Positions 5,360-51,938 of a DNA stretch of 64,000 bases are shown in pieces. The notes beneath the pieces are model-generated. The model was not told the origin of the DNA, searched no databases, and saw only the letters and a program-made list of their open reading frames with translations. Position 1 is the first letter of the stretch, and the number at the start of each line of letters is the position of its first letter. This DNA is from Planctomycetota bacterium (GTDB taxonomy: Bacteria; Planctomycetota; UBA1135; UBA2386), in NCBI GenBank assembly GCA_016872675.1, contig VGZG01000003.1, positions 175-64,174 on the forward strand, read 5' to 3'. A program made the translations under genes and the position numbers.

Positions 5360-5360
5360 G

Positions 5361-21562: not shown

Positions 21563-21568
21563 TGCTGG

Positions 21569-22755: not shown

Positions 22756-22762
22756 GGCGCGC

Positions 22763-23392: not shown

Positions 23393-23401
23393 AGCCCACC
23401 C

Positions 23402-23761: not shown

Positions 23762-23786
23762 GTCCCGTTGGCGACGCGGCGCGGCG

Positions 23787-24515
23787 ATGAACGACCCCAG
23801 CGTGTTCGACCGTGCCGACGCGACCTGCGACGGCGGTGACCTCGACTGCGGCAGCGGGCTGCTGCTGATCATCCGCAGCGCCTTCCAGCCGGTCCCCGCC
23901 GGCGGCACGCTGTTGGTCAAGAGCCGCGAGACGTCGGTGCGCGAGGACCTGCCGGCGTGGTGCCGACTCGTCGGCCACACCATCGAGGCGGAGCGCGACG
24001 CCGACAACGGCTACCGCCACTTCCTGCTGCGCAAGAAGGCCGACGACCAGGCGCTCGCCGCCGACCTGCAGAAGGCCCGCGCGCACGTCTGGCAGACGCG
24101 CGCGCGCTGGACCGGCGGCATGCAGGCCAAGGCGACGATGCGCAACCACGCCGTCGCCATCGGCCAGCCGGCCAGCTTCGACACCGAGGACGCCGCGCCG
24201 TCCGCCATCGAGCTGCTGCTCGCCGCGGTCGCTGGCGCGCTGACCACCGGCTACCAGTGGCGGCTGTCGCAGAAGGGCGTCGACGTGCACGACCTCGAAG
24301 TCGTCGCCAAGGCCCGCTCCGACGACCCGCTGGTCTTCCTCGGCGTCGCCGCCGACGGCCATCCCGGCCTCGCCGAAGTCGAGGTCGTCGCCTACGTCAG
24401 CGCCAGTGGCGACGCCGACCTTGCCGCCGAATGGCAGCAGACGGTCCGTCGCTGCCCCGTGACCCAATCCCTGCTCCGCTCCGCCCCGGTGCGCACGACG
24501 CTGCGCGCCCTCTGA
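23787..24515 (+). CDS. TusA-like domain fused to OsmC/Ohr-family domain
   Basis: The N-terminus 'CDGGDLDCGSGLLLIIRSAFQPVPAGGTLLVKSRETSVREDLPAWCRLVGHTI' is TusA-like. The C-terminal half 'PSAIELLLAAVAGALTTGY...EVVAYVSASGDADL...RCPVTQSL' is OsmC-like. Confidence 0.75.
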   Translation: MNDPSVFDRADATCDGGDLDCGSGLLLIIRSAFQPVPAGGTLLVKSRETSVREDLPAWCRLVGHTIEAERDADNGYRHFLLRKKADDQALAADLQKARAHVWQTRARWTGGMQAKATMRNHAVAIGQPASFDTEDAAPSAIELLLAAVAGALTTGYQWRLSQKGVDVHDLEVVAKARSDDPLVFLGVAADGHPGLAEVEVVAYVSASGDADLAAEWQQTVRRCPVTQSLLRSAPVRTTLRAL

Positions 24516-24519
24516 TCCG

Positions 24520-25665
24520 ATGCGCCACCGCCCGATCCCCCGCTTCCCCGTCAGCGTCGTCGGCAGTTGGCCGCGGCCGCGCTGGTTGCTCGAGGCCATG
24601 CGCAAGAAGGCCGCCGACCTGCCGGAGCTGCGCGACCAGGCGACGCTGCTGGCGATCAAGCAGCAGGAGGACGCCGGCGTCGACGTGCTGACCGACGGCG
24701 AGCAGCGCCGCGACAACTTCTACTCGTTCCTGACCGAGAAGCTCGACGGTGTTGCGCTGATGACGATGGCCGACCTGCTCGACTACGTCGAGGACAAGGC
24801 GGCGTTCGAGGGCCTGCTGCAGGCGCTCGACGTGCCCGCCTTCGCAATCAAGAACCCCACCATCACGGGCCGCCTCGTCCGCCGCGAGCCGCTCGCCGTG
24901 CGCGAGGCCGAGTTCCTCCGCCGGCACACCACCCGCGCCACCAAGGTGGCGCTGCCGGGCCCGTACCTGCTGTCGCGCTCGATGTGGGTGCAGAAGCTGT
25001 CGTCGCAGGCCTACCCGACGCGCGATCTCCTGTGCGACGACATCGTCGCCATCCTGCGGGCCGAGCTGCAGGAAGTCGCCGACCTCGGCGTCGAGATCGT
25101 GCAGTTCGACGAACCCGTGCTGACCGAACTGGTGTTCGCCGGCAAGGCGGCGACGCGCACGTTCATGTGCGCTGCGCTCGCCGCCGCCGCCGACCCGGCC
25201 GCCGAACTGGAACTCGCGGTCCAGCTGATGAACCGCGTCACCGACGGCATCAAGGGCGTGCGCACCGCGGTGCACGTCTGCCGCGGCAACTGGAGCCGCA
25301 ACGAGGACGTGCTGCTGGCCGGCGACTACGCGCCGCTGCTGCCGCACCTCGCGCGCATGCAGGTCGACCAGTTCGTGCTCGAGTACGCGACGCCGCGCGC
25401 CGGGCCCGAAGCTCTGCTGACGCAATTGCCAGCGCGCGCCAGCGTCGGCTTCGGCGCGGTCAACCCGCGCACCGAGCCCGTCGAGGATCCGGCGGCGATC
25501 GCCGCCCGCGTCGGCAAGCTGGCGGAGTTGCTCGGCCCGGAGCGCATCTGGCTCAACCCGGACTGCGGCTTCGGCACCTTCGCCGAGCGACCGGTGGCCA
25601 CCGGCGAGGTGGCCGAACGTAAGTGCGCGATCCTGGCCGCGGCGGCGCGAGCGCTGCGCCGCTGA
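24520..25665 (+). CDS. Cobalamin-independent methionine-synthase-like (MetE C-terminal domain family) Zn methyltransferase
   Basis: 'SVVGSWPRP', 'VLTDGEQRRDNFYSF', the Zn-ligand-like 'AVHVCRGNW' (H-x-C) and 'IWLNPDCGFGT' (Cys) are present. The length of 381 aa is typical of single-domain MetE-like proteins. The gene starts 4 nt after the TusA-OsmC gene. Confidence 0.8.
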   Translation: MRHRPIPRFPVSVVGSWPRPRWLLEAMRKKAADLPELRDQATLLAIKQQEDAGVDVLTDGEQRRDNFYSFLTEKLDGVALMTMADLLDYVEDKAAFEGLLQALDVPAFAIKNPTITGRLVRREPLAVREAEFLRRHTTRATKVALPGPYLLSRSMWVQKLSSQAYPTRDLLCDDIVAILRAELQEVADLGVEIVQFDEPVLTELVFAGKAATRTFMCAALAAAADPAAELELAVQLMNRVTDGIKGVRTAVHVCRGNWSRNEDVLLAGDYAPLLPHLARMQVDQFVLEYATPRAGPEALLTQLPARASVGFGAVNPRTEPVEDPAAIAARVGKLAELLGPERIWLNPDCGFGTFAERPVATGEVAERKCAILAAAARALRR

Positions 25666-25715: not shown

Positions 25716-27542
25716 TCAGCCGGCCTTCTTGAGCACGGCGTCGGCAGGCTTGGCGGTGGCCTTCTTCGCCGCCGCGCCCTGCTCGAGTTCGTCGGCGAGC
25801 TTGCCAGCGCCGTACACCTTGCGCAGCGCCTCAACGATGATCGCCGGGTGCACGCTGACCGAGCGGGCGACCTCGTCGTCGAAGACGAAGTTGTTGCCCA
25901 GCGACTCGATGTTGCCGTCGAAGATCAGGCCGACCACGTTGAGGTCGCGGTCGATGACCGGCGAGCCGGAGTTGCCACCGATGATGTCGCACGTGGAAAC
26001 GAAGTTGAACGGCGTGCGCAGGTCCATGCGCGCCTCGGCGTCGAGCCACGGCTGCGGCAGGTTGAACGGATAGCGGCCGCCGAACTCGTGGTGGCGCGCA
26101 AACAGGCCGTACAGCGACGTCTGATGCGGCGCGACCGTGCCGTTCATCTCGTACCCCTTCACCACGCCGTCGCTGATGCGCAGCGACATCGTCGCATCCG
26201 GCGGGATCGACGCGCCATGGATCGCGAAGCACGCCTCGCCGATGCGCTTGTTCTGCGCCGCCTCGGCCTTGGCCAGCTCCTGCAGCGTCTTCATGTCCGG
26301 CTTCGCCTGCTGCATCGCCGCGACCTTCTCCGCCTGCAGCGCCGCGACCTTGTCCCAGGCGTCGCCGTACTTGGCGAGCAGGTCGGCGTTCTTGGCGACG
26401 AGGCCGCGCAGTTGCGCCTCGGCCTTCTGCTTGATCGCGATGATCCGCGGGTCGAGCAGGCCGTCACGGTAGCCCTCGACCGCCTTGCGCGTGTTCTCCA
26501 GCGAGAGGATCTGGGCCCGCAGTTCCTTTTCCTTCACGGGGCTGGCCTTGGCCTGCGCGTACAGGTCCTGCAGCTGCGCCTTGGTCTGCGCCAGGCGCGC
26601 CGGGAAGCTGTGGTCGCGCAGGAACTCGCACTGTGCCACCGTCTGCAGGCGGCCGGTGCGGCCCGGGTTGCCGGTCACGAACACGAGGTCGCCCTCGGGC
26701 GCGCCGGCGGTCTTCCAGGCAAAGTGGTTGGCGCCGCAGGCGACCGGTTTGTCGCCCTGCCACGCGCGCACGAACGTGAAGTCGAGACCCCAGCGCGGAA
26801 AGCAGAAGTTGTCCGGATCGCCGCCGAAGTGCGCGATCTGGCCGTGCGGCGCGCAGACGAGCCGCAGGTCGTCATAGACCCGGAAGCTGTAGAGCTGGTA
26901 GTTGCCGCCCTGGTAGAGCGCGATGACCTCGTGCTCGTGGCCTGGGTCCTGGTCCGCGGCCGACTTCTTGACCGCGTCGACACCCTGGGCGTTGACCGCA
27001 GCGGTGACGTCCTGCTGGCGCACCAGTTGGGTCATGCGGAAGCCGGGCAGCTTGACCTCGTTCTCCCACGCGCCGGCGTAGAAGCCGTCCTTCAACCAGT
27101 CAGCGGCGCCCTGCACCGCGGCGATGGCGTCGCGGGAGCAGTGGTGATTGGTCATCACCAAGCCGTGCGGGCTGACGAACGACGCCGAGCAGAAGTTGCG
27201 GATCGTGCCGTCTTCCATCTTGCGGCCAAAGCGCAGCGAGCTGAGGCGCGCCTGCTCGAGCCACGCCTCGGTCGGCTGCCAGTCGTAGGCTTGCTGGAAC
27301 CAACCGGCCGGAGCGGCTTCGAACGTCCACATACGTCCGAGGTCCTTGTTCGGCTGCTCGACCTTCGGCAGCGCTGGCCCCGCTGGCGGCGGCGGCTCGA
27401 AAGAAGCGCTCGCGGCGCGGTCAGGGGCGCCGCTGCAGGCGGCGAGGACAAGGGCGAGCCAGGGCGCGGCGGCGACGCGGCGCGCGACCCCGGAGACGGC
27501 GAGGTGGAGGCGATCGGGCTTCATGGTTCTGGGGCGAGGCAT
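25716..27542 (-). CDS. S46-family dipeptidyl-peptidase-like serine protease (lipoprotein)
   Basis: 'CSASFVSPHGLVMTNHHC' (catalytic His region) and 'GGNSGSPVIDRDLNVVGLIFDGN' (catalytic Ser) match S46 DPP7/DPP11-type peptidases. There is an N-terminal lipobox 'LVLAAC'. Confidence 0.8.
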   Translation of the reverse strand: MPRPRTMKPDRLHLAVSGVARRVAAAPWLALVLAACSGAPDRAASASFEPPPPAGPALPKVEQPNKDLGRMWTFEAAPAGWFQQAYDWQPTEAWLEQARLSSLRFGRKMEDGTIRNFCSASFVSPHGLVMTNHHCSRDAIAAVQGAADWLKDGFYAGAWENEVKLPGFRMTQLVRQQDVTAAVNAQGVDAVKKSAADQDPGHEHEVIALYQGGNYQLYSFRVYDDLRLVCAPHGQIAHFGGDPDNFCFPRWGLDFTFVRAWQGDKPVACGANHFAWKTAGAPEGDLVFVTGNPGRTGRLQTVAQCEFLRDHSFPARLAQTKAQLQDLYAQAKASPVKEKELRAQILSLENTRKAVEGYRDGLLDPRIIAIKQKAEAQLRGLVAKNADLLAKYGDAWDKVAALQAEKVAAMQQAKPDMKTLQELAKAEAAQNKRIGEACFAIHGASIPPDATMSLRISDGVVKGYEMNGTVAPHQTSLYGLFARHHEFGGRYPFNLPQPWLDAEARMDLRTPFNFVSTCDIIGGNSGSPVIDRDLNVVGLIFDGNIESLGNNFVFDDEVARSVSVHPAIIVEALRKVYGAGKLADELEQGAAAKKATAKPADAVLKKAG

Positions 27543-27739: not shown

Positions 27740-30700
27740 TCAGGCGCGCGCAGATCGCCGCCGCAGCGCGAGCCACTGCACGACCGGCGTCAGCAGCAGG
27801 CTGAGCACGAGGCACAGCGACTGGCCGCCGATGACGACGACGGCGATCGCCTTGCGCTCCTCGGCGCCCGGACCGGCGCCGACCGCCAACGGCAGCATGC
27901 CGGCGACGAACGCCAGCGTGGTCATCAGGATCGGCCGCAGCCGATCGCGGCTGCCCTGCACGACCGCGTCGTGCGCCGGCACGCCGGCGCGTAGCAGTTG
28001 GTTGGTGTGGTCGACCTGCAGGATGGCGTTCTTCTTGACCATCCCAAACAGCACGAGGATGCCGAGCGCCGAGTAGAGATTGAGCGTCTCGCCGGTCGCC
28101 CATAGCGACAGCAACGCAAATGGCGCGGCGACGGGGATCGCCAGCAGGATGATCAGCGGTTGCGTCAGACTCTCGAACTGCGCCGCCAGAATCATGTACA
28201 TGAAGACGAGCGCCAACAGGAACGCGCCGAGGAACTCGCCGCCGGCTTGCTCCAGTTCGCGCGCGCTGCCGGCGACGGCCGTCGAGTACTCGGCCGGCAG
28301 CCGCAGGTCGCCCGCCAGTCGGCGGAGGTCGGCGACGGCGTCGGCAAGCGCCGCGCCCGGCGCCGGGCTGCCGCGCAGGCTAGCCTGCCGCTGGCGGTCC
28401 ATGCGATCGATGCGGGACGACGTCGTCGCCGACTCGATGCGCACGAGGTTGTCGACACGCACGGTGCCGCCGTCGCCGCGGCCAACCAGCAGCTCGCCGA
28501 TGCGGTCGACGCGCTGCCGGTCCGCCTCGCGCAGGCGCAGGCGGACGTCGTACTCCTCGTCGAGCTTGGGGTCGCGGAAGCGCGACACCTCAGTCACGCC
28601 ACCGACCATCAACCGCAGCGCCGTGGCGATGTCCTGGGTCGAAACGCCGAGTTCGGCGGCGCGCGGTCGGTCGATCTGCACGCGCAACTCCGGTCGCCGC
28701 AGCCGCAGGGTCGTGTCGAGGTCGATCATCGAGCCGGACTTGTTGGCGGTCACGCGCAGGTCCTCGACCGCTGTCGCCAGCGTCGCCAGGTCGGGGCCGC
28801 GGATGGCGAAGTCGAGCGGGAACGGTCCGCCGCCAAGGTTGAAGCTGCGCTGGTTGCGCACCGAGACGCGCACATCGGTCAGCTTGCGCAGCCGCTGGCG
28901 GATCTCCGCCATGACCTCGCGCTGCGTGTAGTTGCCGCGGAACGCCGCCGCCGGATCGCCGACGAACGTGGCGCGAACCAGCCGATCGAGCGAGAAACGC
29001 CGGCGCTCGTGCGGCACGATGCGCACGAAGACGCTGCCGTTTGACAACCCGCCGAGGAAGCCGCCACCGACCTGGGTCAGTGCCGCTTCGACGGCCGGGA
29101 CCTGGGCCAGCTCAACCTCGACAGCGCGCATGACGCCGTCCATCGCCGCGAGGCTGGCATCGTCCGGGCCGTTGACGGCGATCTCGAACTCGCCTTCGTC
29201 GACGTCGCTCGGGATGAAGTCCTGCCGCACCGTGCCGGCGAGCAGCACAGTGCTGGCGACGACGAGCGCCGAGCCGAGCACGACGAGCCACGGCCGGCGC
29301 AGGCAGCCGCACAGCGCCGCGGCGTAGGCGCGCTCGGACCAGCCGCCGCCGTGGCTGGGTTTCGCGTCGGCCGGTCGCACCAGCCGCGCGCACATCGCCG
29401 GCGTCAGCGTGAACGACACCACCAGCGACAGCAGCACGGCGACCGCGGCGGTGATGCCAAACTGGAAGAGGAACCTGCCGGTGATGCTCGACAAGAACGA
29501 CACCGGCACGAAGATCACGACGAGGCTCAGCGTCGTCGCCAGCACCGCTAGCGCGATCTCGCCGACCGCCTCGCGCGCCGCCTGGAACGGCGGCAGGCCC
29601 TGCTCGTCGGCCCAGCGCTGCACGTTCTCCAGCACGACGATGGCGTCGTCGATGACGACGCCGACCATCAGCACCAGCGCCAGCATGGTCACGCCGTTGA
29701 GCGTGAACCCCAACGTCCACATGACGCCGAAGGTGGCCACGACCGACACTGGGATCGCGACGCCGGCGATCAGCGTGGCGCGCCAGCTGCGCAGGAACCA
29801 CAGCACCACCAGCGCCGCCAGCAGCGAGCCGACCACGAGATGGAATTCGATCTCGTGCAGGGCGGCGCGGATGTAGCGCGACTGGTCGCGGACGATCTCC
29901 AGACGCAGGTCCGGCGGCAGCTGCGCGCGCAGGGCTTCGATTGGACCGAGCAAGCCGTCGATGACGGCGACGGTGTTGGCGCCCGATTGCCGGCGCACCT
30001 CCATCACCACCGTCGGCACGCCGTCTAGGCGCGCCAGTGAGCGCGCCTCGGCGGTGCCGTCCTCGATGCGCGCGACGTCGCCGAGCTCGACCGGCACGCC
30101 GTTGCGACGGGCGATGGTCAGCGTGCGGAAGGCCGCCGGGTCGAGCACTCGGCCGAGCGTGCGCAGGGTGCGTTCGCGCTGGTCGTCGGTGACGTTGCCG
30201 CCGGGCACGTCGCTGTTCTGACGGCGGATCGCGTCGCTGACGGCATCGACCGGCAAGTCGTAGGCGGCGAGCCGATCGGCGTCGACCCAGACGTTGATCG
30301 TGCGCTCGATGTCGCCGACGAGCCGAACCTCGCCGACGCCGCGGCCGCGCTCGAGCACACGCTTGATGCGCTTGTCGGCGATCTCGGACAGTTCGCGCAT
30401 CGGCCGATCGCCGGCCAGCGCGAGGGTGAGCACCGGCGAGCTGTCGCTGTCGAACTTGCTGACCACCGGCGGTTCGCAGTCCTCCGGCAGGCGACGCATC
30501 GCCTGCGACACGCGGTCGCGCACGTCCTGCGCGGCGGCGTCGATGTCGCGGCCAAGGTCGAACGTCACCAGCACCAGCGACGTGCCGGCGCCCGATATCG
30601 AGCGCAGTTCGCGAATGCCCTCGACGGTGTTGACGATCTCCTCGATCGGGTACGTGACCGAGACCTCGACCTCCTCGGGCGCGCCGCCGGGCAGCTCGGT

Positions 30701-30847
30701 GCGCACGGTGACGGTCGGCAGGTCGTAGGCGGGGTAGCGGTCGACGGCGAGGAAACGGAAGCCGACGGCGCCGGCGACCACCATCGCCAGGATCAACATG
30801 GTCGCGAAAACCGGCCGGTGGATGCAGACGTCGGCGAGCTTGCGCAC
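27740..30847 (-). CDS. RND efflux transporter permease (AcrB/HAE-type), 1035 aa
   Basis: The gene starts at GTG 30847 ('(M)RKLADVCIHRPVFATMLILAMVVAGAVGF'), a typical RND N-terminus. It has the 12-TM two-large-loop layout. The track ORF to 31411 adds an Arg-rich 188-aa extension that overlaps the MFP gene. The start lies 2 nt after the MFP stop. Confidence 0.9.
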   Translation of the reverse strand: MRKLADVCIHRPVFATMLILAMVVAGAVGFRFLAVDRYPAYDLPTVTVRTELPGGAPEEVEVSVTYPIEEIVNTVEGIRELRSISGAGTSLVLVTFDLGRDIDAAAQDVRDRVSQAMRRLPEDCEPPVVSKFDSDSSPVLTLALAGDRPMRELSEIADKRIKRVLERGRGVGEVRLVGDIERTINVWVDADRLAAYDLPVDAVSDAIRRQNSDVPGGNVTDDQRERTLRTLGRVLDPAAFRTLTIARRNGVPVELGDVARIEDGTAEARSLARLDGVPTVVMEVRRQSGANTVAVIDGLLGPIEALRAQLPPDLRLEIVRDQSRYIRAALHEIEFHLVVGSLLAALVVLWFLRSWRATLIAGVAIPVSVVATFGVMWTLGFTLNGVTMLALVLMVGVVIDDAIVVLENVQRWADEQGLPPFQAAREAVGEIALAVLATTLSLVVIFVPVSFLSSITGRFLFQFGITAAVAVLLSLVVSFTLTPAMCARLVRPADAKPSHGGGWSERAYAAALCGCLRRPWLVVLGSALVVASTVLLAGTVRQDFIPSDVDEGEFEIAVNGPDDASLAAMDGVMRAVEVELAQVPAVEAALTQVGGGFLGGLSNGSVFVRIVPHERRRFSLDRLVRATFVGDPAAAFRGNYTQREVMAEIRQRLRKLTDVRVSVRNQRSFNLGGGPFPLDFAIRGPDLATLATAVEDLRVTANKSGSMIDLDTTLRLRRPELRVQIDRPRAAELGVSTQDIATALRLMVGGVTEVSRFRDPKLDEEYDVRLRLREADRQRVDRIGELLVGRGDGGTVRVDNLVRIESATTSSRIDRMDRQRQASLRGSPAPGAALADAVADLRRLAGDLRLPAEYSTAVAGSARELEQAGGEFLGAFLLALVFMYMILAAQFESLTQPLIILLAIPVAAPFALLSLWATGETLNLYSALGILVLFGMVKKNAILQVDHTNQLLRAGVPAHDAVVQGSRDRLRPILMTTLAFVAGMLPLAVGAGPGAEERKAIAVVVIGGQSLCLVLSLLLTPVVQWLALRRRSARA

Positions 30848-30849
30848 GG

Positions 30850-32055
30850 CTACTCCACGACCTGCACCGGCGTCTCGGGCGCGAGCCCGACCGCCACGGC
30901 GACGACTAGTTCGCCGACGGCGACACCGCGCACGATTTCGACCGCGTCGCCAACCGGCCGGCCGAGTTCGACCAGCACGCCCTTGGCGCGCGGCGTGCCA
31001 TCCGCAGCGCTGGCGACAGTGAACACGCGGTCGACGCCGGCAAAGGTCACCACCGCCGCGCGCGGCACGGTGACGACCGGCGCGGCCGCCGCGACGACGA
31101 TGCGCGCCCGGCAGAACGCGCCCGGCAGCAGCGCGCCGTCGGCGTTCTGCACCTCGGCCTCGACGAGGCGCGTGCGATCGCCCCGGTCGATCGCCGGACC
31201 GGTGCGCACCACCTTGCCGACGCGCTCGGCGACATCGGCGCCGTCGACCGTGAACTCGACGGCCTGGCCGGCGGCGACGCCGAAGGCGAGGCGATCGGGC
31301 ACGCGCAACCGCAGCCGCAGCGGCTCGATGCGCAGCAGCGTCACCACTGGCGCGCCGCCCTGCACCACCTGGCCGACGGCGACGTGACGCATGGCGACGC
31401 GGCCCTGCCACGGCGCCGTGATGATGGCGTCGCGCCGGCGCTTGTGCGCCTGTGCCAGTTCGATGCGGCGCAGCCTGGCGTCGGCGATCCAGGTGCGAAC
31501 GTCGTCGCGGGCGCGGCGCAGCCGGTTCTCGGCCACGGCCAGCGCCGCGGTCGCGACCTCTAGCTGCGCGGTCGCCTGCAGCGAGCCCTCGACCAACTTG
31601 ACCACGCGCTCACGGTTGAGCCGGGCCTCGACCAGCACGGCCTCGGCTTCGCGCACACTCGGCGCCTGCTCGACGTCGAACGCCGCCGGATCGGCGGCGG
31701 CGGCGAGTCCGAGCCGCGCGTCGGACGCGCCCACCGCCGCTTCGGCGCGCTCGATCGCGAGGTCGAACTCGCGCGGATCGAGCGTCGCGACCACATCGCC
31801 GGCGGCGACCACATCGCCGACGTCAACGCCGAGTGAGGCGATGCGGCCGCCGACCTCGAGGCCGAGCACCAATTCTTCCTGGGCGGCGAGCACGCCGCTG
31901 ACGGCGACCTTGATCGGCAACGCCGCGGCCGCGGCGGCGACGAGCCGCACCGCCTTGGGCGCGCGCGGCGCCGCGCCGACGCCAGAGGCCGCGGGCTTGG
32001 CGCACGCGGCGAGCGCGGCGACCAGCACGATGTGCGCGAGTCGACGAGACCTCAC
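30850..32055 (-). CDS. RND efflux periplasmic adaptor (MFP/HlyD family), lipoprotein
   Basis: The gene starts at GTG 32055 ('(M)RSRRLAHIVLVAALAACAKP', lipobox LAAC). It has a barrel-sandwich/coiled-coil pattern ('ITAPWQGRVAMRHVAVGQVV', 'RLRLRVPD'). The start overlaps the stop of ATP-grasp A as GTGA. Confidence 0.85.
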   Translation of the reverse strand: MRSRRLAHIVLVAALAACAKPAASGVGAAPRAPKAVRLVAAAAAALPIKVAVSGVLAAQEELVLGLEVGGRIASLGVDVGDVVAAGDVVATLDPREFDLAIERAEAAVGASDARLGLAAAADPAAFDVEQAPSVREAEAVLVEARLNRERVVKLVEGSLQATAQLEVATAALAVAENRLRRARDDVRTWIADARLRRIELAQAHKRRRDAIITAPWQGRVAMRHVAVGQVVQGGAPVVTLLRIEPLRLRLRVPDRLAFGVAAGQAVEFTVDGADVAERVGKVVRTGPAIDRGDRTRLVEAEVQNADGALLPGAFCRARIVVAAAAPVVTVPRAAVVTFAGVDRVFTVASAADGTPRAKGVLVELGRPVGDAVEIVRGVAVGELVVAVAVGLAPETPVQVVE

Positions 32056-33269
32056 CCGACCACCACCGTCAGGTCGTTGACGAAGCGCTCGGACATCTCC
32101 AGCGTCGGCGCGAAGTCCGGATGACGGACGATGACCCAGCCGTCGCCGACGACGACCTTGCGCCAGTCGCGCTTCGGCTCGCCGACCGGCGTCAACTCGA
32201 TGTTGGCGACGTGCGGGCCGTAGCGGCGCATCAGTTCGGCGAGGCCGCGGTGCTCCTTGACCGTGCCCTCGCCCTGCCCACGCTTGAAGATCATCGAGCA
32301 GTTGTACTTCTTGGTGACGTCCTGGCTCAACCGGCCAAAACACGCCGCCTCGGCCCAGCCGGCGAACAGGTCGACGTCGCACGAGTAGTTCATCGCGTGC
32401 ACGAGCCTTGCGCCGGCTGGCCGGCCGCCGATTTCGCCGAACACCGCCTCGCCCTTCGGCGTGCGGAACCACTCCATGTGCGTGAAACCGGTGCCAAAGC
32501 CGAGCGCCTGGATCACCGCGCGGCCGAGTTCGACGCCCGGCCGCGGCAGCTCCTGCGTCAGGTCGCGCAGCACGATGTTCTGCATCGAGACCCACGGACT
32601 CTGCGCCAGCACCATCGGCTTGGGTCGGTACCACGCGACGCTCTCGAACAGGATGCGGCCATCGACGCAGATCGTGTCGTAGGTCAGTTCCTCGCCTTCG
32701 ATGAACTCCTCCACCGACAGCACGTCGATGTGGCGCACTTTGTCCAGCGCCAACGCGAACTCGGCCTTGTCGTTGCAGCGGTATGTGTCCTTGCTGCCAG
32801 CGCCGTCGATCGGCTTGACGATGGCGGGGTAGCCGATGCGTTCGACGTGGGCCCACGCTTCCTTGGCGCTGTGCGCCTTGCCGTGTCGCGGCACGCGCAG
32901 ACCGGCCTTCTCGACCGCCTGCTTCATCGTCTCCTTGTCGCGGAAGACCTCGGTCTGGGCCTTGCTCATGCCGGGCAGGCCAAAGCGCTCGCGCAGCGAC
33001 GCCGCGAGATACATCAGCCGCTCCCACAGGCACTCGACGCGGTCGACCGAGCGGCCGCGCAGCCAGGCGTGGATCTCCTCGGCCGCCTTCACCTCGTCGC
33101 CAAACGTCGACACCTGCAGGTAGTCGGTCAGCGCCTCGCGCGCCTCGCGCGGCAGCGCGGCGGCGGGCTGATCGCCGACGCCGAGGACCTTGGCGCCGAC
33201 CTTGGCGAGGCCGCGGACGAACAGCGGCATCTCGGCGGGGAACCCGGGACTGAGGAAGACGACGTGCAT
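32052..33269 (-). CDS. ATP-grasp ligase paralog A (about 405 aa)
   Basis: 'MHVVFLSPGFP...', 'FRDKETMKQAV', 'GYPAIVKPIDGAGSKDT', 'VEEFIEGEELTYD', 'FTHMEWF' and 'GEIGGRPAG' form an ATP-grasp fold signature. The start is ATG 33269; the track start at 33374 is an over-extension. Confidence 0.8.
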   Translation of the reverse strand: MHVVFLSPGFPAEMPLFVRGLAKVGAKVLGVGDQPAAALPREAREALTDYLQVSTFGDEVKAAEEIHAWLRGRSVDRVECLWERLMYLAASLRERFGLPGMSKAQTEVFRDKETMKQAVEKAGLRVPRHGKAHSAKEAWAHVERIGYPAIVKPIDGAGSKDTYRCNDKAEFALALDKVRHIDVLSVEEFIEGEELTYDTICVDGRILFESVAWYRPKPMVLAQSPWVSMQNIVLRDLTQELPRPGVELGRAVIQALGFGTGFTHMEWFRTPKGEAVFGEIGGRPAGARLVHAMNYSCDVDLFAGWAEAACFGRLSQDVTKKYNCSMIFKRGQGEGTVKEHRGLAELMRRYGPHVANIELTPVGEPKRDWRKVVVGDGWVIVRHPDFAPTLEMSERFVNDLTVVVG

Positions 33270-33288
33270 GGCGTGGGTCGGTCTCTGT

Positions 33289-34515
33289 TCAGGCGGTCTC
33301 GACGCGGACGGTGCGAACGATGTGCTGGACCGCGCGTTCGACGACGGCGGTGTCCGGGTGGCGGCACAGCACATAGCCGTCGCCCTCGTAGGTGGCGGCC
33401 TTCGGCTTGCCGACCTGCGGCGCCTTGACCTCGACGACGATGTCGCCGAGGTCGGCCCGCACGGCGTCCAGGCCGTGCACGGCGCGGATCGCGGCGTCAG
33501 CGCCGCCGCCCTGCCCGCGCAGGTACGCGGCGCCGGCGGCGAACCGCCGCGGCGGCGGCGTGAAGGTCTCGAACACCATCAGTTCGGCGAAGGCGCGGTA
33601 CATGTCGACGTCGGTGACAAGGCTCATCAGCGACATGAACTGCGCGCCCGGCGGCCGCGCGGCGACCTCGCCGATGGCGATGCTGCCGTCGGCGCGGCGG
33701 AACCACTCCATGTGCGACATGCCGTTCCACATGCCGAGCATGCTGAGCGCACGCGGGCCGACGCGATGGATGTCGGCGAACTCCGGCCCCGACAGGTCCC
33801 GCGGCAACACGACGGTCCACTGGATCCACGGGTTCTCCATCACCTGCAGCGGCGTCGGGTGATAGCAACAGACGTTGTGGAAGATGTGCAGGCCGTGCAG
33901 CGTCACCGAGTCGAATGAGAACTCGCGGCCGGTGACGAACTCCTCGAGCAGCACGCCGCGGCCCGGCGCCGGCCGCATGGCGCCGACGAACTCGGCGAGC
34001 GCCGCGTGGTCGGCGAGCCGGGACGTCGCCTTGGCCCCGGCCCCCGCCGGCGGCTTGCCGACCACCGGGAAGCCAACCTCGCGCACGAAGCCCTCCGCCT
34101 CGCCCAGCGACGCGCATAGACGGTGGCGCGCGCACGGCACGTTGTCGGCGGCGAACAGGTCCTTCATGCGGCCCTTGTCGCGGAAGTTGCGCGCCGTCTG
34201 CGCGTCCATGCCGCGGATGCGCAAGCGTTCGCGCACCGCCGCCAGCGACTCCTGCAGCGGCTCCAGGATGCCGACAAGCCGCGCGACCGGGCCCAGGCGC
34301 GCGCCGAGGCGCTCGACCACAGCCGCCAGCAGTTCAGGCTTGAGCGCGTCGACAACCCGCTCGTAGCCGATCGCCACTTCCCGCAGATCGGCCGGGAAGC
34401 GCTCGATCGGATCCTGCGACACGAGGCTCAGCCGCACCCCCGGCAGCGCCGCCGCGGCGCGCGCGAAGCGCAGCGAGTTCTCCATGGCGAACGGGATCAC
34501 GAAGCAGACGTGCAT
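33289..34515 (-). CDS. ATP-grasp ligase paralog B (about 408 aa)
   Basis: 'MHVCFVIPFA...', 'FRDKGRMKDLF', 'GFPVVGKPPAGAGAKAT', 'LEEFVTGREFSFD', 'MSHMEWF' and 'GEVAARPPG' are present. The start is ATG 34515; the track start at 34743 is Arg-rich. Confidence 0.8.
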   Translation of the reverse strand: MHVCFVIPFAMENSLRFARAAAALPGVRLSLVSQDPIERFPADLREVAIGYERVVDALKPELLAAVVERLGARLGPVARLVGILEPLQESLAAVRERLRIRGMDAQTARNFRDKGRMKDLFAADNVPCARHRLCASLGEAEGFVREVGFPVVGKPPAGAGAKATSRLADHAALAEFVGAMRPAPGRGVLLEEFVTGREFSFDSVTLHGLHIFHNVCCYHPTPLQVMENPWIQWTVVLPRDLSGPEFADIHRVGPRALSMLGMWNGMSHMEWFRRADGSIAIGEVAARPPGAQFMSLMSLVTDVDMYRAFAELMVFETFTPPPRRFAAGAAYLRGQGGGADAAIRAVHGLDAVRADLGDIVVEVKAPQVGKPKAATYEGDGYVLCRHPDTAVVERAVQHIVRTVRVETA

Positions 34516-34636
34516 GCGGCATGTCACGGTAGCCAGCAACTGCTGCGCCTGCCACGCCGAGCCGTCGCCCTGGGCCACAGGCCACCGGCGCGTGTTTGCC
34601 GTGGCACCTGGCGACGGAGCGTGCCAACATCCGCGC
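34516..34636. promoter_or_regulatory. Divergent control region between the ATP-grasp B/A-MFP-RND operon and the glgA/ATP-grasp C operon
   Basis: A 121-bp gap lies between the two divergent start codons. It contains an imperfect inverted repeat AGGCCACCGGC...GCCGTGGCACCT. The promoters are inferred from gene geometry only. Confidence 0.3.
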
Positions 34637-36112
34637 ATGCGTCCGCTGCGCCTCGCCCTCTGCGCATCCGAAGTCGCGCCGTTCGCCAAGACCGGCGGCC
34701 TCGCTGACGTGCTGCTCGGCCTCGGCCGCTGGCTCGGCCGCAAGGCCCCAGCCGGCCCCGGCCACGACGTCCGGATCTTCCTGCCTTACTACAAGAAGAT
34801 CGCCGCGTCGGGCCTGGCGACCACGCCGCTCGCCGGCGCGCAGGACATCGAGGTGCGCTTCCCGGCGCGCACGATCCGCTTCTCGATCCGCACCGCGCCG
34901 CTGCCCCAGAGCGACGTGCTGGCGCACTTCGTCGACTGCAAGGAGCTTTACGACCGCGACGCCATCTACACCGAGGACGGCGACGAGCCGCTGCGCTTTG
35001 GCCTGCTGTCGCGCGCCGTGCTGGAGACCTGCCAGCGGCTGGAATGGGCGCCGGACGTCGTGCACTGCAACGACTGGCACACCGGCCTGCTGCCGCTGTA
35101 TCTGCGCACGGTCTACGCCTGGGACCGGCTGTTCGCCGCGACCAAGACGGCGCTCACTATCCACAACATCGGCTACCAGGGGCGATTCGACGCCGCCCAA
35201 CTCGACGTGCTCGGGCTCGGCGACCAGCGCGCGCACGTGCACCACGGCGACCTGCGCGACGGCAAGGTCTCGTTCCTCAAGACTGGCGTGCTGCACGCCG
35301 GTCGGCTGACGACGGTGTCGAAGACGTACGCCCGCGAGATCCAGACCGCCGAGTTCGGCATGGGCCTGGAAGAACTAATGCGGCAGCGCGCCAACGACCT
35401 CGTCGGCATCGTCAACGGCGTCGACTACGGCGAGTGGAATCCGGCCGACGACCCGCGCATCCCGCACCACTTCCACGCCGGCGACCTCGCCGGCAAGGCC
35501 AAGATGAAGGCCGCGATGCTGCAGCGCTTCCAGCTGCCGCACGACCCGCGCGCGCCGGTGTTCGGCGTCGTCTCGCGCCTGACCGCGCAGAAGGGCTTCG
35601 AGCTGTTCGCCGACTCGATCCCGGTGTTCCTGCAGCGCGAGGACATGCGCCTGTGCGTGCTCGGCTCGGGCGACGACAAGCACGAGAGCTACTTCCAGTG
35701 GCTGCGCGACACCTGGCCGCGCAAGGTCTCGGTCTATCGCGGCTTCCAGGAAGACCTCGCGCATTGGATCGAGGCCGGCAGCGACGTCTTCTTGATGCCG
35801 AGCCGCTTCGAGCCGTGCGGCCTCAACCAGATGTACAGCCTGCGCTACGGCACACCGCCGATCGTCCGTCGCACCGGCGGTCTCGCCGACACCGTTGCGC
35901 CGTGGAACCCCGACACCCGGACGGGCACGGGCTTCCTGTTCGACGAGTACAGCAGCCAGGCGCTGGCAGGGACCATCGACTGGGCGCTGCGCAACTGGCG
36001 CGACCAGAAGGGCTGGCAGCAGCTGATGAAGAACGGCATGCAGCAGGACTTCTCGTGGGACAAGCAAGGCCCCGAGTACGTCGCCCTCTACCGCGCCCTG
36101 ACGGGCCTTTGA
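34637..36112 (+). CDS. glgA: Glycogen (starch) synthase, GT5
   Basis: 'EVAPFAKTGGLADV', 'NDWHTGLLPLY', 'GIVNGVDYGEWNPADD', 'SRLTAQKGFEL' and 'PSRFEPCGLNQMYSLRYGTPPIVRRTGGLADTV' are canonical GlgA blocks. The start is ATG 34637. Confidence 0.9.
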   Translation: MRPLRLALCASEVAPFAKTGGLADVLLGLGRWLGRKAPAGPGHDVRIFLPYYKKIAASGLATTPLAGAQDIEVRFPARTIRFSIRTAPLPQSDVLAHFVDCKELYDRDAIYTEDGDEPLRFGLLSRAVLETCQRLEWAPDVVHCNDWHTGLLPLYLRTVYAWDRLFAATKTALTIHNIGYQGRFDAAQLDVLGLGDQRAHVHHGDLRDGKVSFLKTGVLHAGRLTTVSKTYAREIQTAEFGMGLEELMRQRANDLVGIVNGVDYGEWNPADDPRIPHHFHAGDLAGKAKMKAAMLQRFQLPHDPRAPVFGVVSRLTAQKGFELFADSIPVFLQREDMRLCVLGSGDDKHESYFQWLRDTWPRKVSVYRGFQEDLAHWIEAGSDVFLMPSRFEPCGLNQMYSLRYGTPPIVRRTGGLADTVAPWNPDTRTGTGFLFDEYSSQALAGTIDWALRNWRDQKGWQQLMKNGMQQDFSWDKQGPEYVALYRALTGL

Positions 36113-36146
36113 CCCTGATCGGCCTCCGCCACCACGACGCCTCGCC

Positions 36147-37367
36147 ATGCATGTCGCCTTCATCGAGCCCTGCTTCCCGAAGAACCAACGTGAGTTCCTG
36201 CGCGGCCTGCTGAGCACCGGCGCGCGCGTCTCCGCGATCAGCGAACGCCCGCCGGAGGCGCTGCCGTCGGAGCTGCGCGACGACCTGTTCCAGTACGAGC
36301 GGGTGAGGTCGGTCGTCGACGAGCACGCGCTCGCCGAGGCGTGCAAGCGCCTGAGCCAGCGCGCCCGCGTCGATCGGCTCGAGGCGACCGTCGAGGCGCA
36401 CGTGATGGCCGCCGCGAACGTGCGCGAGAAGCTCTCGATCCACGGCACCACGTCGAAGACGGCGTGGCTGTGCCGCGACAAGCCGGCGATGAAGGAAGCG
36501 GTGCGCGCCGCGGGGCTCGGCTGCGCCGCCAGCGCCCGCGTTGCCTCGGTCGCCGACGCCGAGGCCTTCGCCAAGGCCAACGGCTACCCGCTGATTCTCA
36601 AGCCGATCGACGGCGCCGGCGCTTCAGGCGCGACCAAGTGCGTCGCCGACGCCGAACTGAGGTCGGCGTGCGAGGCGCTGCGCGTCGGCAGCGGCCGCGA
36701 GGTCGCGATCGAGGAATTCCTCGAGGGCCACGAGGGCTTCTACGACACGCTGTCGGTGAACGGCACGGTCGTGCTCGACTTCGTCAGCCACTACTACCCC
36801 AACGTGCTCGAGGCGATGCGGACGCGCTGGATCAGCCCGCAGATCGTCGTCAGCAACCGCATCGATCAGGACAGCTACAAGGAGCTGCGCGCCTTCGGCC
36901 AGAAGGTCGTCTCGGCGCTCGGCATCTGGACCTCGCCGACCCACATGGAGTGGTTCTTCGGCCAGAAGGGCCTGAAGTTCTCCGAGATCGGCTGCCGGCC
37001 GCCGGGCGTCGGCGTCTGGGACCTCTATTGCGCCGCCAACGAGTTCGACCTCTACGCCGCGTGGGCGCACGCGATCGTGCACGAGCAGGTGCCGTTCCGG
37101 CCGAGCCGCAAGTACGCCGCCGGCATGATCGCGCTGCGCCCGGACCAGGACGGCACGATCGCCGGGTACGAGGGCTGGGAGCGTTTCCAGCAGCAGCACG
37201 GCCAGTGGATCCTCGACAGCCATCTGCCGCCCGCCGGCACGCCGACCCAGGGCGTCGAGGCCGGCTACATGGCCAACGCCTACGTGCGTATGCGCCACCC
37301 CGACTTCGACCAGCTGCGCGCGATGCTGAACGCCTGCGGCGAGCAGGTGAAGGTGAAGGCCCGATGA
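36147..37367 (+). CDS. ATP-grasp ligase paralog C (406 aa)
   Basis: 'MHVAFIEPCFP...', 'CRDKPAMKEAV', 'GYPLILKPIDGAGASGA', 'IEEFLEGHEGFYD', 'PTHMEWFF' and 'SEIGCRPPG' are present. The gene starts 34 nt after the glgA stop. Confidence 0.8.
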   Translation: MHVAFIEPCFPKNQREFLRGLLSTGARVSAISERPPEALPSELRDDLFQYERVRSVVDEHALAEACKRLSQRARVDRLEATVEAHVMAAANVREKLSIHGTTSKTAWLCRDKPAMKEAVRAAGLGCAASARVASVADAEAFAKANGYPLILKPIDGAGASGATKCVADAELRSACEALRVGSGREVAIEEFLEGHEGFYDTLSVNGTVVLDFVSHYYPNVLEAMRTRWISPQIVVSNRIDQDSYKELRAFGQKVVSALGIWTSPTHMEWFFGQKGLKFSEIGCRPPGVGVWDLYCAANEFDLYAAWAHAIVHEQVPFRPSRKYAAGMIALRPDQDGTIAGYEGWERFQQQHGQWILDSHLPPAGTPTQGVEAGYMANAYVRMRHPDFDQLRAMLNACGEQVKVKAR

Positions 37368-37468: not shown

Positions 37469-38200
37469 CTACGCGTCGGCCAGCCGGTAGCGCTGCACGC
37501 GCACGCCGAGCGCGCGCATGGCCGCCGCGCCGACGAACTCGGGCCCAGGCGAGACGTCGAGCATCGACCACTTCGCGGCGTCTTCCTTGCCGTCGCGGAT
37601 GGCGACCAAGCGCGGCTCATCGCACAAACTGACGTCGAACACATCGAGCGGCATCGACAGACCTTCGCCGAGCGCCTTGATGTAAGCCTCCTTGCGGGTC
37701 CAGCAGCGGTAGAACGCCAACTCGCGCGCTTCGCCCTGCAGCGCGTCGAGGGCCGCGAACTCAGACGGCGAGAAGTGCTTGCGGGCGATCTCCGTCAGGC
37801 TGTCGAGGCGACGCACCTTCTCGACGTCGAGGCCGACTTCGGTCTTCGACACGCCAATCAGCGCAAGCTTGCCGCTGTGCGAGAGGTTGAAGTGCGGGCC
37901 GGGCGCGGCGAGGAACGGCTTGCCGCGCGGGCCAGCGGCGAACTCGACGTCAGCCGGGCCACAACCGAGGTAACCGGCGAGGATCAGGCGCAGCGCGCCG
38001 TGGCCAATCTGGAAACGGCGGCGATGGTCGGCGAAGTGAAAGCGGCTGAGCCGCTGGTTCTCTGCCTTCGAGAGGTTCGCGCCGAGCCGCTCCGCATCAC
38101 CGGTCAACGGCACCGCCCAGACGTGCAACTCGCCGTCGACGAGCGTCGGACTGCCAGCGCGGGTGACCGCGAAGGTGTCGTGCAGCGCAAGCTCTTCCAT
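37469..38200 (-). CDS. Sfp-type 4'-phosphopantetheinyl transferase
   Basis: 'GPRGKPFL...HFNLSHSGKLALIGVS..EVGLDVEKV' and 'FYRCWTRKEAYIKALGEGL' are the PPTase motifs (G-x-P, F-N-x-S-H-S, G-x-D, W-x-x-K-E-A-x-x-K). Confidence 0.8.
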   Translation of the reverse strand: MEELALHDTFAVTRAGSPTLVDGELHVWAVPLTGDAERLGANLSKAENQRLSRFHFADHRRRFQIGHGALRLILAGYLGCGPADVEFAAGPRGKPFLAAPGPHFNLSHSGKLALIGVSKTEVGLDVEKVRRLDSLTEIARKHFSPSEFAALDALQGEARELAFYRCWTRKEAYIKALGEGLSMPLDVFDVSLCDEPRLVAIRDGKEDAAKWSMLDVSPGPEFVGAAAMRALGVRVQRYRLADA

Positions 38201-38248: not shown

Positions 38249-41104
38249 TCAGCGAATGTCGCGGCGGAACGGCGCCGCCGGCAGGCCGTGCGACGACGAC
38301 AGCGACCACGCCGGCACGGCCGCCCAGGCGTAGCGGACCTTGCGCGGCTCTGGCACGCCAGCAGCGACCAGTTCGACCGCGCCATCGACCAGACGCGCGC
38401 CTGCTGACCGGAACTCGCCGTCGGCGCCGGCGAGTTCGAAACCAACACCGGCGCCGGCGAGCGCCAGTTTCTCCGCGCCTTTGAAATGCAGCGTCACGCG
38501 TTCGCCGGCGCGCACGGCATCGACGCACACCGGGCCTTCGCACGGCACGTCCTCGCCATACGTGCGCGCCCGCGCCAGCAGCGCCAGCCGCTCCCCGACC
38601 GGGCGCTTGGCGCGCGGATGGATGTCCTTTGGATCGCCGACGTCGAGGGTCGTGACCATGCCGGTGCCCGGCAGCGCCAGCGCCGCGGCCTGCGCCTCGC
38701 GCAGCTCCGCCGTCTGGCCGGAGTCGCGCTCGTAGCCATACGGCGCGATCTGCACGAAGTGGAAGGCCAGCGACTCGCCGAAGCCATCGCGCCAGTCGCG
38801 CACCAGGGCGGGGAACAGGCGGGCGTATTGCGCGGCGCGCCCGCGGTTGCTCTCGCCCTGGTACCAGATCGCGCCGGCGAACGGGAACGGCTGCAGCGGC
38901 GCGATCATGCCGTTCCACAGCACGCTGGCGCGATTCGGGCCGCCGTCGCGCGGCCACGGCGGCAGCTGTCCAAGCGCCGCGAGCGTGCGCCGTTGCCAGC
39001 CGTCGACGAGCGGGGCCGACGCGTCGGGCGCGTCGCGGCGACGCAGACACAACGCCGCCGGCGCGCCGCCAAATCCGCCTTCGCCGCTGGTGTCGACGAC
39101 GCGGATGCGCAACTCGTGCGGTCCGACGGTCGCGAGCCGCGCCGGCACGATGTAGTCGCGCGGCGTATTCCACGCACCGTCGCGGTCCATGCCGCCGATG
39201 CGCTCGCCGTCCCACGTGGCGACGTCCATATCGTCGATCGGGCCGAGTTCGAGCGCGAGCTCCGTGCCCGACCACGCCGCCGGCACGTTGACCGTGACGC
39301 GATACTCGGCAGCGCCGTCGAAGTCGCCGAGTCCGCTCCGCGACCAGACGTCCGGCATCGCGCACGCGACGAACACGCCGGACTCGGCCGACCCGACCGC
39401 GCGCCAGAATGCGCGCCGCTGCGCCGCCGGATCGGCACCGGTGTCGCGCAGTTGCGCCAGTTGGCCGGCGAACTCCGGGAAACCACTCAGGCCAGCGGCG
39501 CTGGTCCACGCCTCGGCGACGGTGCCACCCCACGCACTGACGACGAGACCGAACGGACGCCCGCGCGCCTGCTGCAGCGCGCGCGCGAAGTGGAAGCCGA
39601 CTGCCGAGAAGTCCTTGGCCACCGCCGGCGCACAGACCTGCCAGCTGCCGTCGCAGTCGGCCTGCGGCGTGTTGCTCGCGCGGCGCGCCACCGTGAACAC
39701 ACGCAAGGTCGGCAGGTCGGCGGCAGCGATCGCTGCCTCGTGGCCATCGATGCCTTCGCTCCAGCCTGCCTTGCCGAGCTGCATCTCCATGTTGCTCTGG
39801 CCGGACGCCAACCAGACGTCGCCGGCGAGCACGTCGCGCACGTCGATGCGCTGGCCGGCGCAAGCGACGGCGAAGTCATGCGCCCCGCCCGGCGCGGTCG
39901 GCGTCGCCAGATCGACCGCGAAGCGTCCGTCGGCGCCGCACAGGCCACGGCCGGAAGCGCCCCACGACGCGGTGACGTCGACGATGGCGTAGGCCGTCGC
40001 CGTGCCGCGCACCGCCACGACGCCGCCGACCGGCATGACCATGTGGTCGCTGAACAAGCGCGCGAGCGCGAGCGGCTGGCGCGGCCAACCAGTGCGGCGC
40101 GCGACGCGGCCGGCGTCGCCCGCTGCCCACACGCTGCCGTCGCGGCCGACCGCGCAGGCATGGAATCCGATCGGCGTCACCGACGCGCCTTCGCCGCGCC
40201 ACTGCGTCGTGCCGTGCGAGCCCACCGCGAGCGCCGTCCCGTCGTCGAGCCACGCGACCGCCGACCGGAAGCCGCTGAACCCTTCGACCGCCGTCCACGT
40301 GCGGCCGCCGTCCGTCGTCTGCGCCGCGCCGCCGACCGTCGGATCGGCGTAGTCCCCGCCGACGACGAGGCCCCGTTCGCCGCGGAACGCAAGGCCGAAG
40401 GCGCCGCGCGACGCAGAGCCCGCCGGCAGCGGCAGATCCTGCGTCGTCCAACCGGCCGCGTCGCCGCGCAGCAGCCGCGCGCGCGCGCCGCCGCCGGTAG
40501 CGATCCAGAAGATCTCGCGCCCCACCTCGCCAGTCACGGCGACGCAGGCGCCGCTCGCGGCGAATGCGGCTTCGCCCGGCAGCGGTGCGGGCAGCTGGTT
40601 CGCCGGCGCCGCGTGCCACGTCGCCCCGCCGTCGCGCGACGTCCAGACGCCGAAGGCGCCGTCGATCGGATCGCCAAACAGCACGCCGACGTCGCCCTGG
40701 AACGCCATCGCGTCGAAGAACGCGCCCGGTCGATCGTCGGCGAGCACGGTCCGCCACGAGACCCCGCCGTCGTCGGTGCGCAGCACGCGCGCCGGCGTGC
40801 CGGCGACCATCGCCAGCGCCCGCTGCGCGTCCCAGGCTTCGACATCGCGGAAGTCCCACGCCGAAGCGTCAGCGGGCGCGACGTTGCTCCAGTCCGAGCC
40901 GCCGTCGGTCGTGCGCCAGATCGCGCCCTTGCTGCCGCTCACCCATGCCACCGATGCATCGACGACCGCGAGACCGCGCAAGCTGGACGTCCCGGTCGAT
41001 GTCACGCGCCACGAGACGGCGCCTTCGCCTTCGCCGCTCGGCGCGACGCAGGAAGTGAGCACGAAGAGAGCGAGACAAAAGCGCGACAAGACGAGGCAGG
41101 GCAT
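38249..41104 (-). CDS. Lipoprotein: BNR/Asp-box beta-propeller fused to sialate O-acetylesterase (SASA/SGNH-like) domain
   Basis: Lipobox 'FVLTSC'. Four Asp-box-like motifs are present (TTDGGSDWS, TDDGGVSWR, SRDGGATWH, TTDGGRTWT). The C-terminal part has 'GDVWLASGQSNME', 'SAWGGTVAEAW' and 'GAIWYQGESN', typical of sialate O-acetylesterases. Confidence 0.75.
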   Translation of the reverse strand: MPCLVLSRFCLALFVLTSCVAPSGEGEGAVSWRVTSTGTSSLRGLAVVDASVAWVSGSKGAIWRTTDGGSDWSNVAPADASAWDFRDVEAWDAQRALAMVAGTPARVLRTDDGGVSWRTVLADDRPGAFFDAMAFQGDVGVLFGDPIDGAFGVWTSRDGGATWHAAPANQLPAPLPGEAAFAASGACVAVTGEVGREIFWIATGGGARARLLRGDAAGWTTQDLPLPAGSASRGAFGLAFRGERGLVVGGDYADPTVGGAAQTTDGGRTWTAVEGFSGFRSAVAWLDDGTALAVGSHGTTQWRGEGASVTPIGFHACAVGRDGSVWAAGDAGRVARRTGWPRQPLALARLFSDHMVMPVGGVVAVRGTATAYAIVDVTASWGASGRGLCGADGRFAVDLATPTAPGGAHDFAVACAGQRIDVRDVLAGDVWLASGQSNMEMQLGKAGWSEGIDGHEAAIAAADLPTLRVFTVARRASNTPQADCDGSWQVCAPAVAKDFSAVGFHFARALQQARGRPFGLVVSAWGGTVAEAWTSAAGLSGFPEFAGQLAQLRDTGADPAAQRRAFWRAVGSAESGVFVACAMPDVWSRSGLGDFDGAAEYRVTVNVPAAWSGTELALELGPIDDMDVATWDGERIGGMDRDGAWNTPRDYIVPARLATVGPHELRIRVVDTSGEGGFGGAPAALCLRRRDAPDASAPLVDGWQRRTLAALGQLPPWPRDGGPNRASVLWNGMIAPLQPFPFAGAIWYQGESNRGRAAQYARLFPALVRDWRDGFGESLAFHFVQIAPYGYERDSGQTAELREAQAAALALPGTGMVTTLDVGDPKDIHPRAKRPVGERLALLARARTYGEDVPCEGPVCVDAVRAGERVTLHFKGAEKLALAGAGVGFELAGADGEFRSAGARLVDGAVELVAAGVPEPRKVRYAWAAVPAWSLSSSHGLPAAPFRRDIR

Positions 41105-44013: not shown

Positions 44014-44016
44014 GCC

Positions 44017-51892: not shown

Positions 51893-51938
51893 GCCACCTC
51901 CCAGATTGACCGTCCGCCGCTCGCCCGCGCGCCGAACG

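Follow-up and report, generated by a model that had tools for sequence, protein, structure and literature searches.

Why would three related ATP-grasp ligases surround a glycogen synthase gene and share an operon with an efflux pump? The arrangement is found in a 64,000-nucleotide stretch of a Planctomycetota genome (GenBank assembly GCA_016872675.1, contig VGZG01000003.1, positions 175 to 64,174), hereafter called the window. Two divergent operons there carry three ligase genes, here named A, B and C, together with the glycogen synthase gene glgA and the genes for a membrane fusion protein (MFP) and a resistance-nodulation-division (RND) permease. Sequence comparison indicates that the link between the ligases and glycogen-synthesis genes, which recurs in about 10 phyla, is real, and that the pump is a stable addition peculiar to one planctomycete clade, outside the conserved core of ligases and glgA. 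The source is an uncultured metagenome-assembled genome (MAG), and an identical locus is present in JGI and ENA metagenome assemblies; the NCBI accessions over the locus are MBM3972701 to MBM3972705. The G+C content of the window is ~70%, and genes were picked by codon-position G+C first and by family searches (Pfam, NCBIfam) second.

Direct reading of the sequence bears out the coordinates and junctions that the initial annotation had given for the six genes. The minus-strand operon begins with ligase B (33289-34515, 408 aa), followed after 19 nt by ligase A (32052-33269, 405 aa; NCBI MBM3972703.1). The TGA stop of A overlaps the GTG start of the MFP gene as GTGA, and this gene, encoding a lipoprotein periplasmic adaptor (30850-32055, 401 aa), is separated by 2 nt between its TAG stop and the next GTG start (TAGCCGTG) from the gene of a HAE1-type RND permease (27740-30847, 1035 aa). 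On the plus strand, glgA (34637-36112, 491 aa) encodes an ADP-glucose-type glycogen synthase and is followed after 34 nt by ligase C (36147-37367, 406 aa; NCBI MBM3972705.1), which we infer to be expressed from one transcript with GlgA. The 121 bp that separate the divergent genes B and glgA (34516-34636) presumably hold both promoters. A promoter scan found no sigma-70-like match in these 121 bp, which also have no Rfam family, and an Rfam search of 25-40 kb returned no family either. The promoter and terminator scan detected no promoter-like site, and the terminator-like sites are all intragenic and no commoner than in shuffled sequence.

Public start calls differ for three of these genes: JGI gives 392 aa for the MFP and 429 aa for B, and NCBI gives 542 aa for glgA. 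The disagreement spans 34484-34636 for glgA, 34516-34578 for B and 32029-32055 for the MFP. The starts of the initial annotation are better supported, because the MHV N-terminus aligns across the three paralogs and their orthologs, because the 401-aa MFP opens with a complete lipoprotein signal (MRSRRLAHIVLVAALAAC), and because relatives again have A and MFP overlapping or abutting, in differing sequence (ATGA, GTGA, TGATG). In the NCBI numbering, A is MBM3972703 and glgA is MBM3972704, with no number left over for B.

The three ligases had been described as paralogs with a common MHV.F start and a series of shared motif blocks. Full-length BLASTP confirms the paralogy, with 32% identity between A and B (E 1e-50), 34% between A and C (E 3e-69) and 32% between B and C (E 5e-61), and the three-way alignment contains 76 invariant columns. 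The motif blocks are present and MHV.F opens all three proteins, but some blocks are looser than described: only C has VDRLE exactly, A has RPAG in place of RPPG, and D.D.Y.AWA is conserved loosely. Fold, ATP-binding Lys, acidic hinge residues and Mg-binding Glu residues place A, B and C in the ATP-grasp superfamily. In Pfam they match only the generic ATP-grasp, ATP-grasp_3 and ATP-grasp_4 families, at or above the gathering score, and among NCBIfam models none passed, with every match far under its cutoff. The best phmmer matches in the PDB are the L-amino-acid ligases (LALs) RizA (4wd3), BL00235 (3vot) and BacD, with E 1e-9 to 2.5e-14. An AlphaFold model of C (pLDDT 87) leads to the same relatives: RizA, BL00235 and YwfE are the best Foldseek matches (TM 0.65-0.70, 14-18% structural-alignment identity), followed by PurK, PurT and biotin carboxylases. 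None of the 127 A, B and C sequences collected for the tree described below departs from the ATP-binding Lys, the EEF hinge, HMEW or the E..R Mg/catalytic motifs; because these catalytic positions are unchanged in every group, A, B and C are probably all active enzymes. They are cytoplasmic, without signal peptides, and Pfam finds no carbohydrate-binding domain in them.

Both the closest sequence and structure relatives and the three-domain architecture point to the LAL class. The proteins share with RizA, BL00235, YwfE/BacD and DdaF a length of ~400-470 aa, the three-domain ATP-grasp fold and the K-P / EEF / H.E / E..R motif set, including the RizA-like E-I-x-x-R variant. The likeness ends there: the structural alignments retain little identity, and the equivalog models for BacD (NF053745) and DdaF (NF041595) give 20-36 bits against cutoffs of 840-850. 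Moreover, known LALs belong to antibiotic clusters of Firmicutes and Proteobacteria, whereas A, B and C reside at glycogen loci and form three ancient paralog groups. The HMM and structure comparisons thus agree with the proposal that these proteins fall outside the characterized families, and by sequence and model they are best described as L-amino-acid-ligase-like ATP-grasp enzymes, new uncharacterized members of a known superfamily. In a plasmid collection, no orthologs of the ligases were found, only distant LAL-like matches of at most 32% identity.

Other identities were considered and rejected. Orthologs are named GAR transformylase, NCAIR synthetase or CPSase by JGI; however, the purT model (TIGR01142) reaches 17-26 bits where the cutoff is 502, and the purK model (TIGR01161) 20-26 where it is 318. 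Cyanophycin synthetase (TIGR02068) gives 25-37 bits against 850, and each ligase, at 405-408 aa, has just one ATP-grasp unit. Some resemblance to the cyanophycin system exists: A, B and C weakly match the G-domain of CphA, and in other phyla an ATP-grasp ligase is paired with an S51-like hydrolase in a storage-polymer setting, as with cyanophycin synthetase and cyanophycinase. Unlike the synthetase, the ligases lack the Mur-ligase-like M domain and the N domain (405 aa compared with about 870-900 aa), and the S51-like protein is highly divergent and absent from this window.

To follow the locus across bacteria, one genome per GTDB species was scanned for relatives of C. At least 577 stretches carry one, and the best 80 were studied with 10-kb flanks, with gene presence and adjacency counted by tblastn of the window proteins against these loci. 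Of the three ligases, C is the most conserved and the most widespread, with orthologs 58-82% identical over 80 species genomes from about 10 phyla; orthologs of 58-64% identity occur in Myxococcota, Acidobacteriota, Gemmatimonadota, Gammaproteobacteria (Steroidobacteraceae), Krumholzibacteria, Eisenbacteria, Chloroflexota and Actinomycetota. Its partner is a canonical glycogen synthase: GlgA scores 512 bits with TIGR02095 against a cutoff of 328, contains Glyco_transf_5 (E 4e-68) and Glycos_transf_1, and carries the KTGGL motif (reading AKTGGLADV). Of the 76 loci with room upstream of C, 40 have glgA immediately 5' of C and on its strand, at a spacing of -1 to 160 nt and in about 10 phyla; in 59, glgA is found within 10 kb of C. 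The association of the ligases with glycogen-synthesis genes is real, and this part of the proposed synteny extends far beyond the planctomycetes.

The number of ligases varies. Both A and B are found in 27 of the 58 loci with at least 5.5 kb upstream of C, and one of the two in 7 more; Myxococcota mostly have C only, Steroidobacteraceae A and C, and many phyla all three. Several lineages have B-A divergent from C with no glgA in between. In a neighbor-joining tree of 127 sequences, A (31 sequences), B (27 sequences) and C are each monophyletic, with distances of 0.72-0.74 between the groups and 0.35-0.46 within them, so the triplication of the ligases is evidently, as judged from this tree, ancient rather than local. 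We found no paper tying ATP-grasp enzymes to glgA or glycogen synthase in the searchable literature, which is incomplete and hence gives no proof; the papers listed that join ATP-grasp with glycogen, or L-amino acid ligase with glycogen, are irrelevant to this locus. The glgA-ligase association and the three-paralog architecture are thus apparently undescribed, as the initial annotation had supposed. All retrieved homologs come from uncultured genomes, a possible reason why the family has gone unnoticed.

The pump has a much narrower distribution. The permease is a full-length ACR_tran protein (859 bits), and the MFP matches TIGR01730 (149 bits, cutoff 95), HlyD_3 and HlyD_D23 and has the lipobox LAAC. 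Together they form an ordinary HAE1-type pair with the adaptor and permease of a tripartite RND pump, similar to AcrAB and MdtABC in the adjacency of the lipoprotein adaptor and the tight coupling of the two genes. They differ from these pumps in being apparently co-translated with two biosynthetic ligases, which is atypical of drug pumps, in missing every equivalog cutoff, and in having no OEP/TolC-family outer-membrane factor among the window open reading frames (ORFs) scanned with Pfam. The MFP and RND genes were found in 6 of the 80 C-centered loci, all from close Planctomycetota. A second, complementary survey started from RND homologs: those at 74%, 72%, 67% and 65% identity, four of five places examined in that range, all come after B-A-MFP, and those at 66% (one case) and 63% are found in unrelated contexts.

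Within the clade, the pump is present in 11 lineages, the window counted, and the operon structure is well preserved. Where the four RND homologs follow B-A-MFP, A and the MFP gene overlap by 4 nt or are separated by a short gap, and 1-3 nt lie between MFP and RND. The A/MFP overlap persists in several sequence forms (GTGA, ATGA and TGATG), which favors maintenance of the coupling over mere inheritance. In MAG GCA_016713175.1, B-A-MFP-RND (locus L088) and glgA-C (locus L022) are on different contigs, and therefore B-A-MFP-RND stay together when glgA-C is elsewhere. The proposed operon is accordingly conserved in its own right, but the idea that the pump belongs to the core of a conserved pathway does not survive: 6 sister lineages are without it, and the MFP-RND pair is found in none of 57 loci outside the clade. 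By its phylogenetic distribution, the pump is best seen as a stable clade-specific addition to the ligase-glgA core. In the 6 pump-less lineages, an S46 peptidase gene directly follows A. The window has such a gene too, encoding a DPP7/DPP11-type dipeptidyl peptidase (25716-27542, minus strand; Peptidase_S46 E 4e-139), and this peptidase is a conserved neighbor of uncertain membership in the system. Two of the relatives show individual features: L088 has an OEP (TolC-like) gene 5 kb downstream of RND, and in L026 a 3.4-kb insert (2449-5867) with an opposite-strand, repeat-rich ORF lies between A and MFP and breaks the junction.

Outside the clade, C is accompanied by a different set of genes. 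These neighbor families were recognized by clustering a filtered set of ORFs from the 80 loci, followed by family searches, and are counted in loci L030-L086 of the survey. The most frequent is an S51-like hydrolase (39 loci), in which a W-S-x-G serine is invariant and a His is conserved, but for which the family evidence is weak. It is followed by a large esterase, EstL (37 loci), related to the enterochelin esterase Fes and to CE1 esterases bearing CBM48; its matches are esterases with an N-terminal CBM48-type domain (the 'isoamylase protein' 6ne9 and the feruloyl esterases 6rzn and 8bbp) and Fes. A very divergent fourth ATP-grasp protein, AG4, is found in 28 loci, a smaller PF00756 esterase in 23, a GCS2-CBS carboxylate-amine ligase in 8 and an AstE/AspA-like deacylase in 5. 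The glycogen genes glgB and glgC (7 loci each) adjoin the cluster in several phyla. None of these extended-cluster neighbors is present in the window, and the close planctomycete relatives have none of them within 10 kb of C. Examples of an S51/GATase1-like hydrolase or a Fes/CE1-like esterase beside C are L056:8971-9960 and L065:2033-3394. AG4 has ~430 aa and 52% mean column identity across phyla (e.g. L060:5041-6417, L067:13409-14650); neither Pfam nor NCBIfam gives a significant match to it, and it matches D-Ala-D-Ala ligases only weakly.

What might the ligases make? We tentatively favor, without holding it to be firmly established, a small peptide-like compound produced by A, B and C in step with glycogen synthesis and exported in this clade. 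The ligases would perform one to three successive ATP-dependent ligations, in each of which an acyl-phosphate would form and then be attacked by an amine or a hydroxyl, and the synthesis of the compound would be coordinated with that of glycogen. In this clade, the probable co-translation of B and A with a lipoprotein adaptor and a HAE1-type RND permease suggests that the product or its derivative may be expelled across the envelope through the pump. In other phyla, the S51-like hydrolase, Fes-like esterases, GCS2-CBS ligase and AstE/AspA-like deacylase could recycle the compound. The peptide- and ester-turnover neighbors in the survey loci and the variable number of ligases are both counted in favor of this reading, as are the LAL-type fold and intact motifs of the enzymes, the link to the glycogen genes, and the A/MFP junctions and cohesion of B-A-MFP-RND.

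Several points weigh against it. We know of no substrate or product for any member of the family, whose retrieved homologs are all from uncultured MAGs. The tight coupling of glgA and C fits a direct action on GlgA or its glucan at least as well as co-regulation. HAE1-type RND pumps load from the periplasm or the outer leaflet, and RND pumps do not take up hydrophilic cytoplasmic solutes; since the ligases are cytoplasmic and the permease loads on the periplasmic side, export of the ligase product needs an extra step, and the B-A-MFP-RND operon contains neither an inner-membrane exporter nor an outer-membrane factor. The 6 sister lineages mentioned above do without the pump altogether. The S51 assignment of the hydrolase is itself weak: the Pfam match has E 3e-4, under the gathering score, and its profile gives only non-significant GATase1 and peptidase E matches in the PDB.

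The main rival to a peptide-like product is decoration of the glucan itself, in which the ligases would ester- or amide-link a carboxylate (an amino acid or an oxidized sugar) to the alpha-glucan made by GlgA, and the Fes/CE1-like esterases of other phyla would strip the decoration. It is made plausible by the glgA-C coupling, with the two genes adjacent or overlapping across phyla and glgB and glgC beside them, and by the resemblance of EstL to esterases with an N-terminal CBM48-type domain. The chemistry also has precedent: some ATP-grasp enzymes make esters (VanA, graspetide ligases), others turn sugar acids into amides (capsule amidoligases), and TupA-type enzymes are a further example of an ATP-grasp acting on sugar carboxylates or forming esters. 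We nonetheless consider it unlikely. The fold of the ligases is nearest to ligases of free amino acids, Pfam detects no carbohydrate-binding domain in them, and the trio persists without glgA in L055, L073, L074, L080 and L085. The N-terminal domain of the esterase amounts to a weak Enterochelin_N match (E 0.007), and the precedent enzymes themselves yield no significant match, ATPgrasp_ST matching A only (E 0.009, well under the cutoff). The suggestion in the initial annotation that the product is glucan-linked is to be read as no more than a possibility.

Two further explanations are improbable. One is protein modification of the RimK or tubulin-tyrosine-ligase kind, by which one or more paralogs would add amino acids to a target such as GlgA and so tune glycogen synthesis. 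It would account for the abutting or translationally coupled glgA and C, and RimK and LysX do match weakly (E 1e-8 to 1e-9, far under cutoffs); yet the nearest relatives are LALs and not RimK, GlgA has no obvious acidic C-terminal tail, and the esterases and the pump would be left unexplained. The other, to which we give equally little credit, denies any shared pathway: the ligases would be housekeeping enzymes of the PurT/PurK type, and their linkage to glgA and to a multidrug pump would be inherited gene order. The JGI names of the orthologs, the generic HAE1 type of the pump and the housekeeping genes in the rest of the window agree with such a view. It is contradicted by the purT and purK scores reported above, by a linkage kept over about 10 phyla with differing flanking genes, by overlap junctions that are kept while their sequence changes, and by the movement of B-A-MFP-RND as a unit. 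A graspetide-type ribosomal peptide with post-translational modifications (RiPP), in which the ATP-grasp enzymes would cyclize a ribosomal precursor and the pump export it, is suggested by several ATP-grasp paralogs with an exporter in one cluster, but is highly improbable and was rejected, as the spaces between the genes (19 nt, 34 nt and 121 bp, and one overlap) could not hold a precursor gene, no microviridin or graspetide family was matched, and the fold is closest to LALs.

An ATP-consuming ligase that is apparently co-translated with GlgA, and retains 58-64% identity between phyla, would be either a new partner or modifier of glycogen synthesis or the sign of a new co-regulated metabolite pathway. 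Bacterial glycogen metabolism is held to be a closed set of GlgC, GlgA, GlgB, GlgP, GlgX and the GlgE route. A bolder proposal is that glgA-C with A and B marks an unrecognized, phylum-spanning branch of storage metabolism, in which the ligases would acylate the growing alpha-glucan, with amino acids or other groups, or build a new peptide-like reserve or protectant in step with glycogen, and this clade would have switched from internal turnover, by the S51-like hydrolase and Fes-like esterases, to secretion by the RND pump; we regard this as rather doubtful. The ligase family is compact and strongly conserved, and is misannotated in public databases as PurT, PurK or CPSase. The clade-specific fusion to the RND pump suggests culture supernatants as a natural place to look for the product.

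The remaining genes of the window include several noteworthy cases. Following C, the minus strand encodes an Sfp-type phosphopantetheinyl transferase (37469-38200) and, at 38249-41104, a carbohydrate esterase of BNR/SASA type with 951 aa, and this order of C, transferase and esterase is kept in most close planctomycete relatives and not in other phyla. Farther on, 41164-45432 holds a gene pair typical of planctomycetes: one for a PSCyt2/PSD1 (DUF1549/DUF1553) protein that has a weak CBM35-like insert, and after it a DUF1501 gene. On the other side of the locus, a sulfur-relay-like cluster (TusA-domain, DsrE-like and TusA-OsmC fusion proteins) and then a MetE-like (Meth_synt_2) gene occupy 22763-25665. 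Two proteins have unusual domain arrangements: the domain of a SpoVG homolog (51323-52090) is split by a double zinc-ribbon insert, and a single ORF at 52877-54289 fuses HPPK, of folate synthesis, with a pantoate-beta-alanine ligase (PanC) domain. Long coding-like ORFs of 550, 532, 744 and 422 aa without a Pfam match are located at 549-3848, 13465-15699 and 21498-22766. Near the end of the window, two adjacent Helicase_C_3 genes, the second of XPB/ERCC3 type, lie at 57588-61684, next to a UvrA-like gene at 61141-63999.

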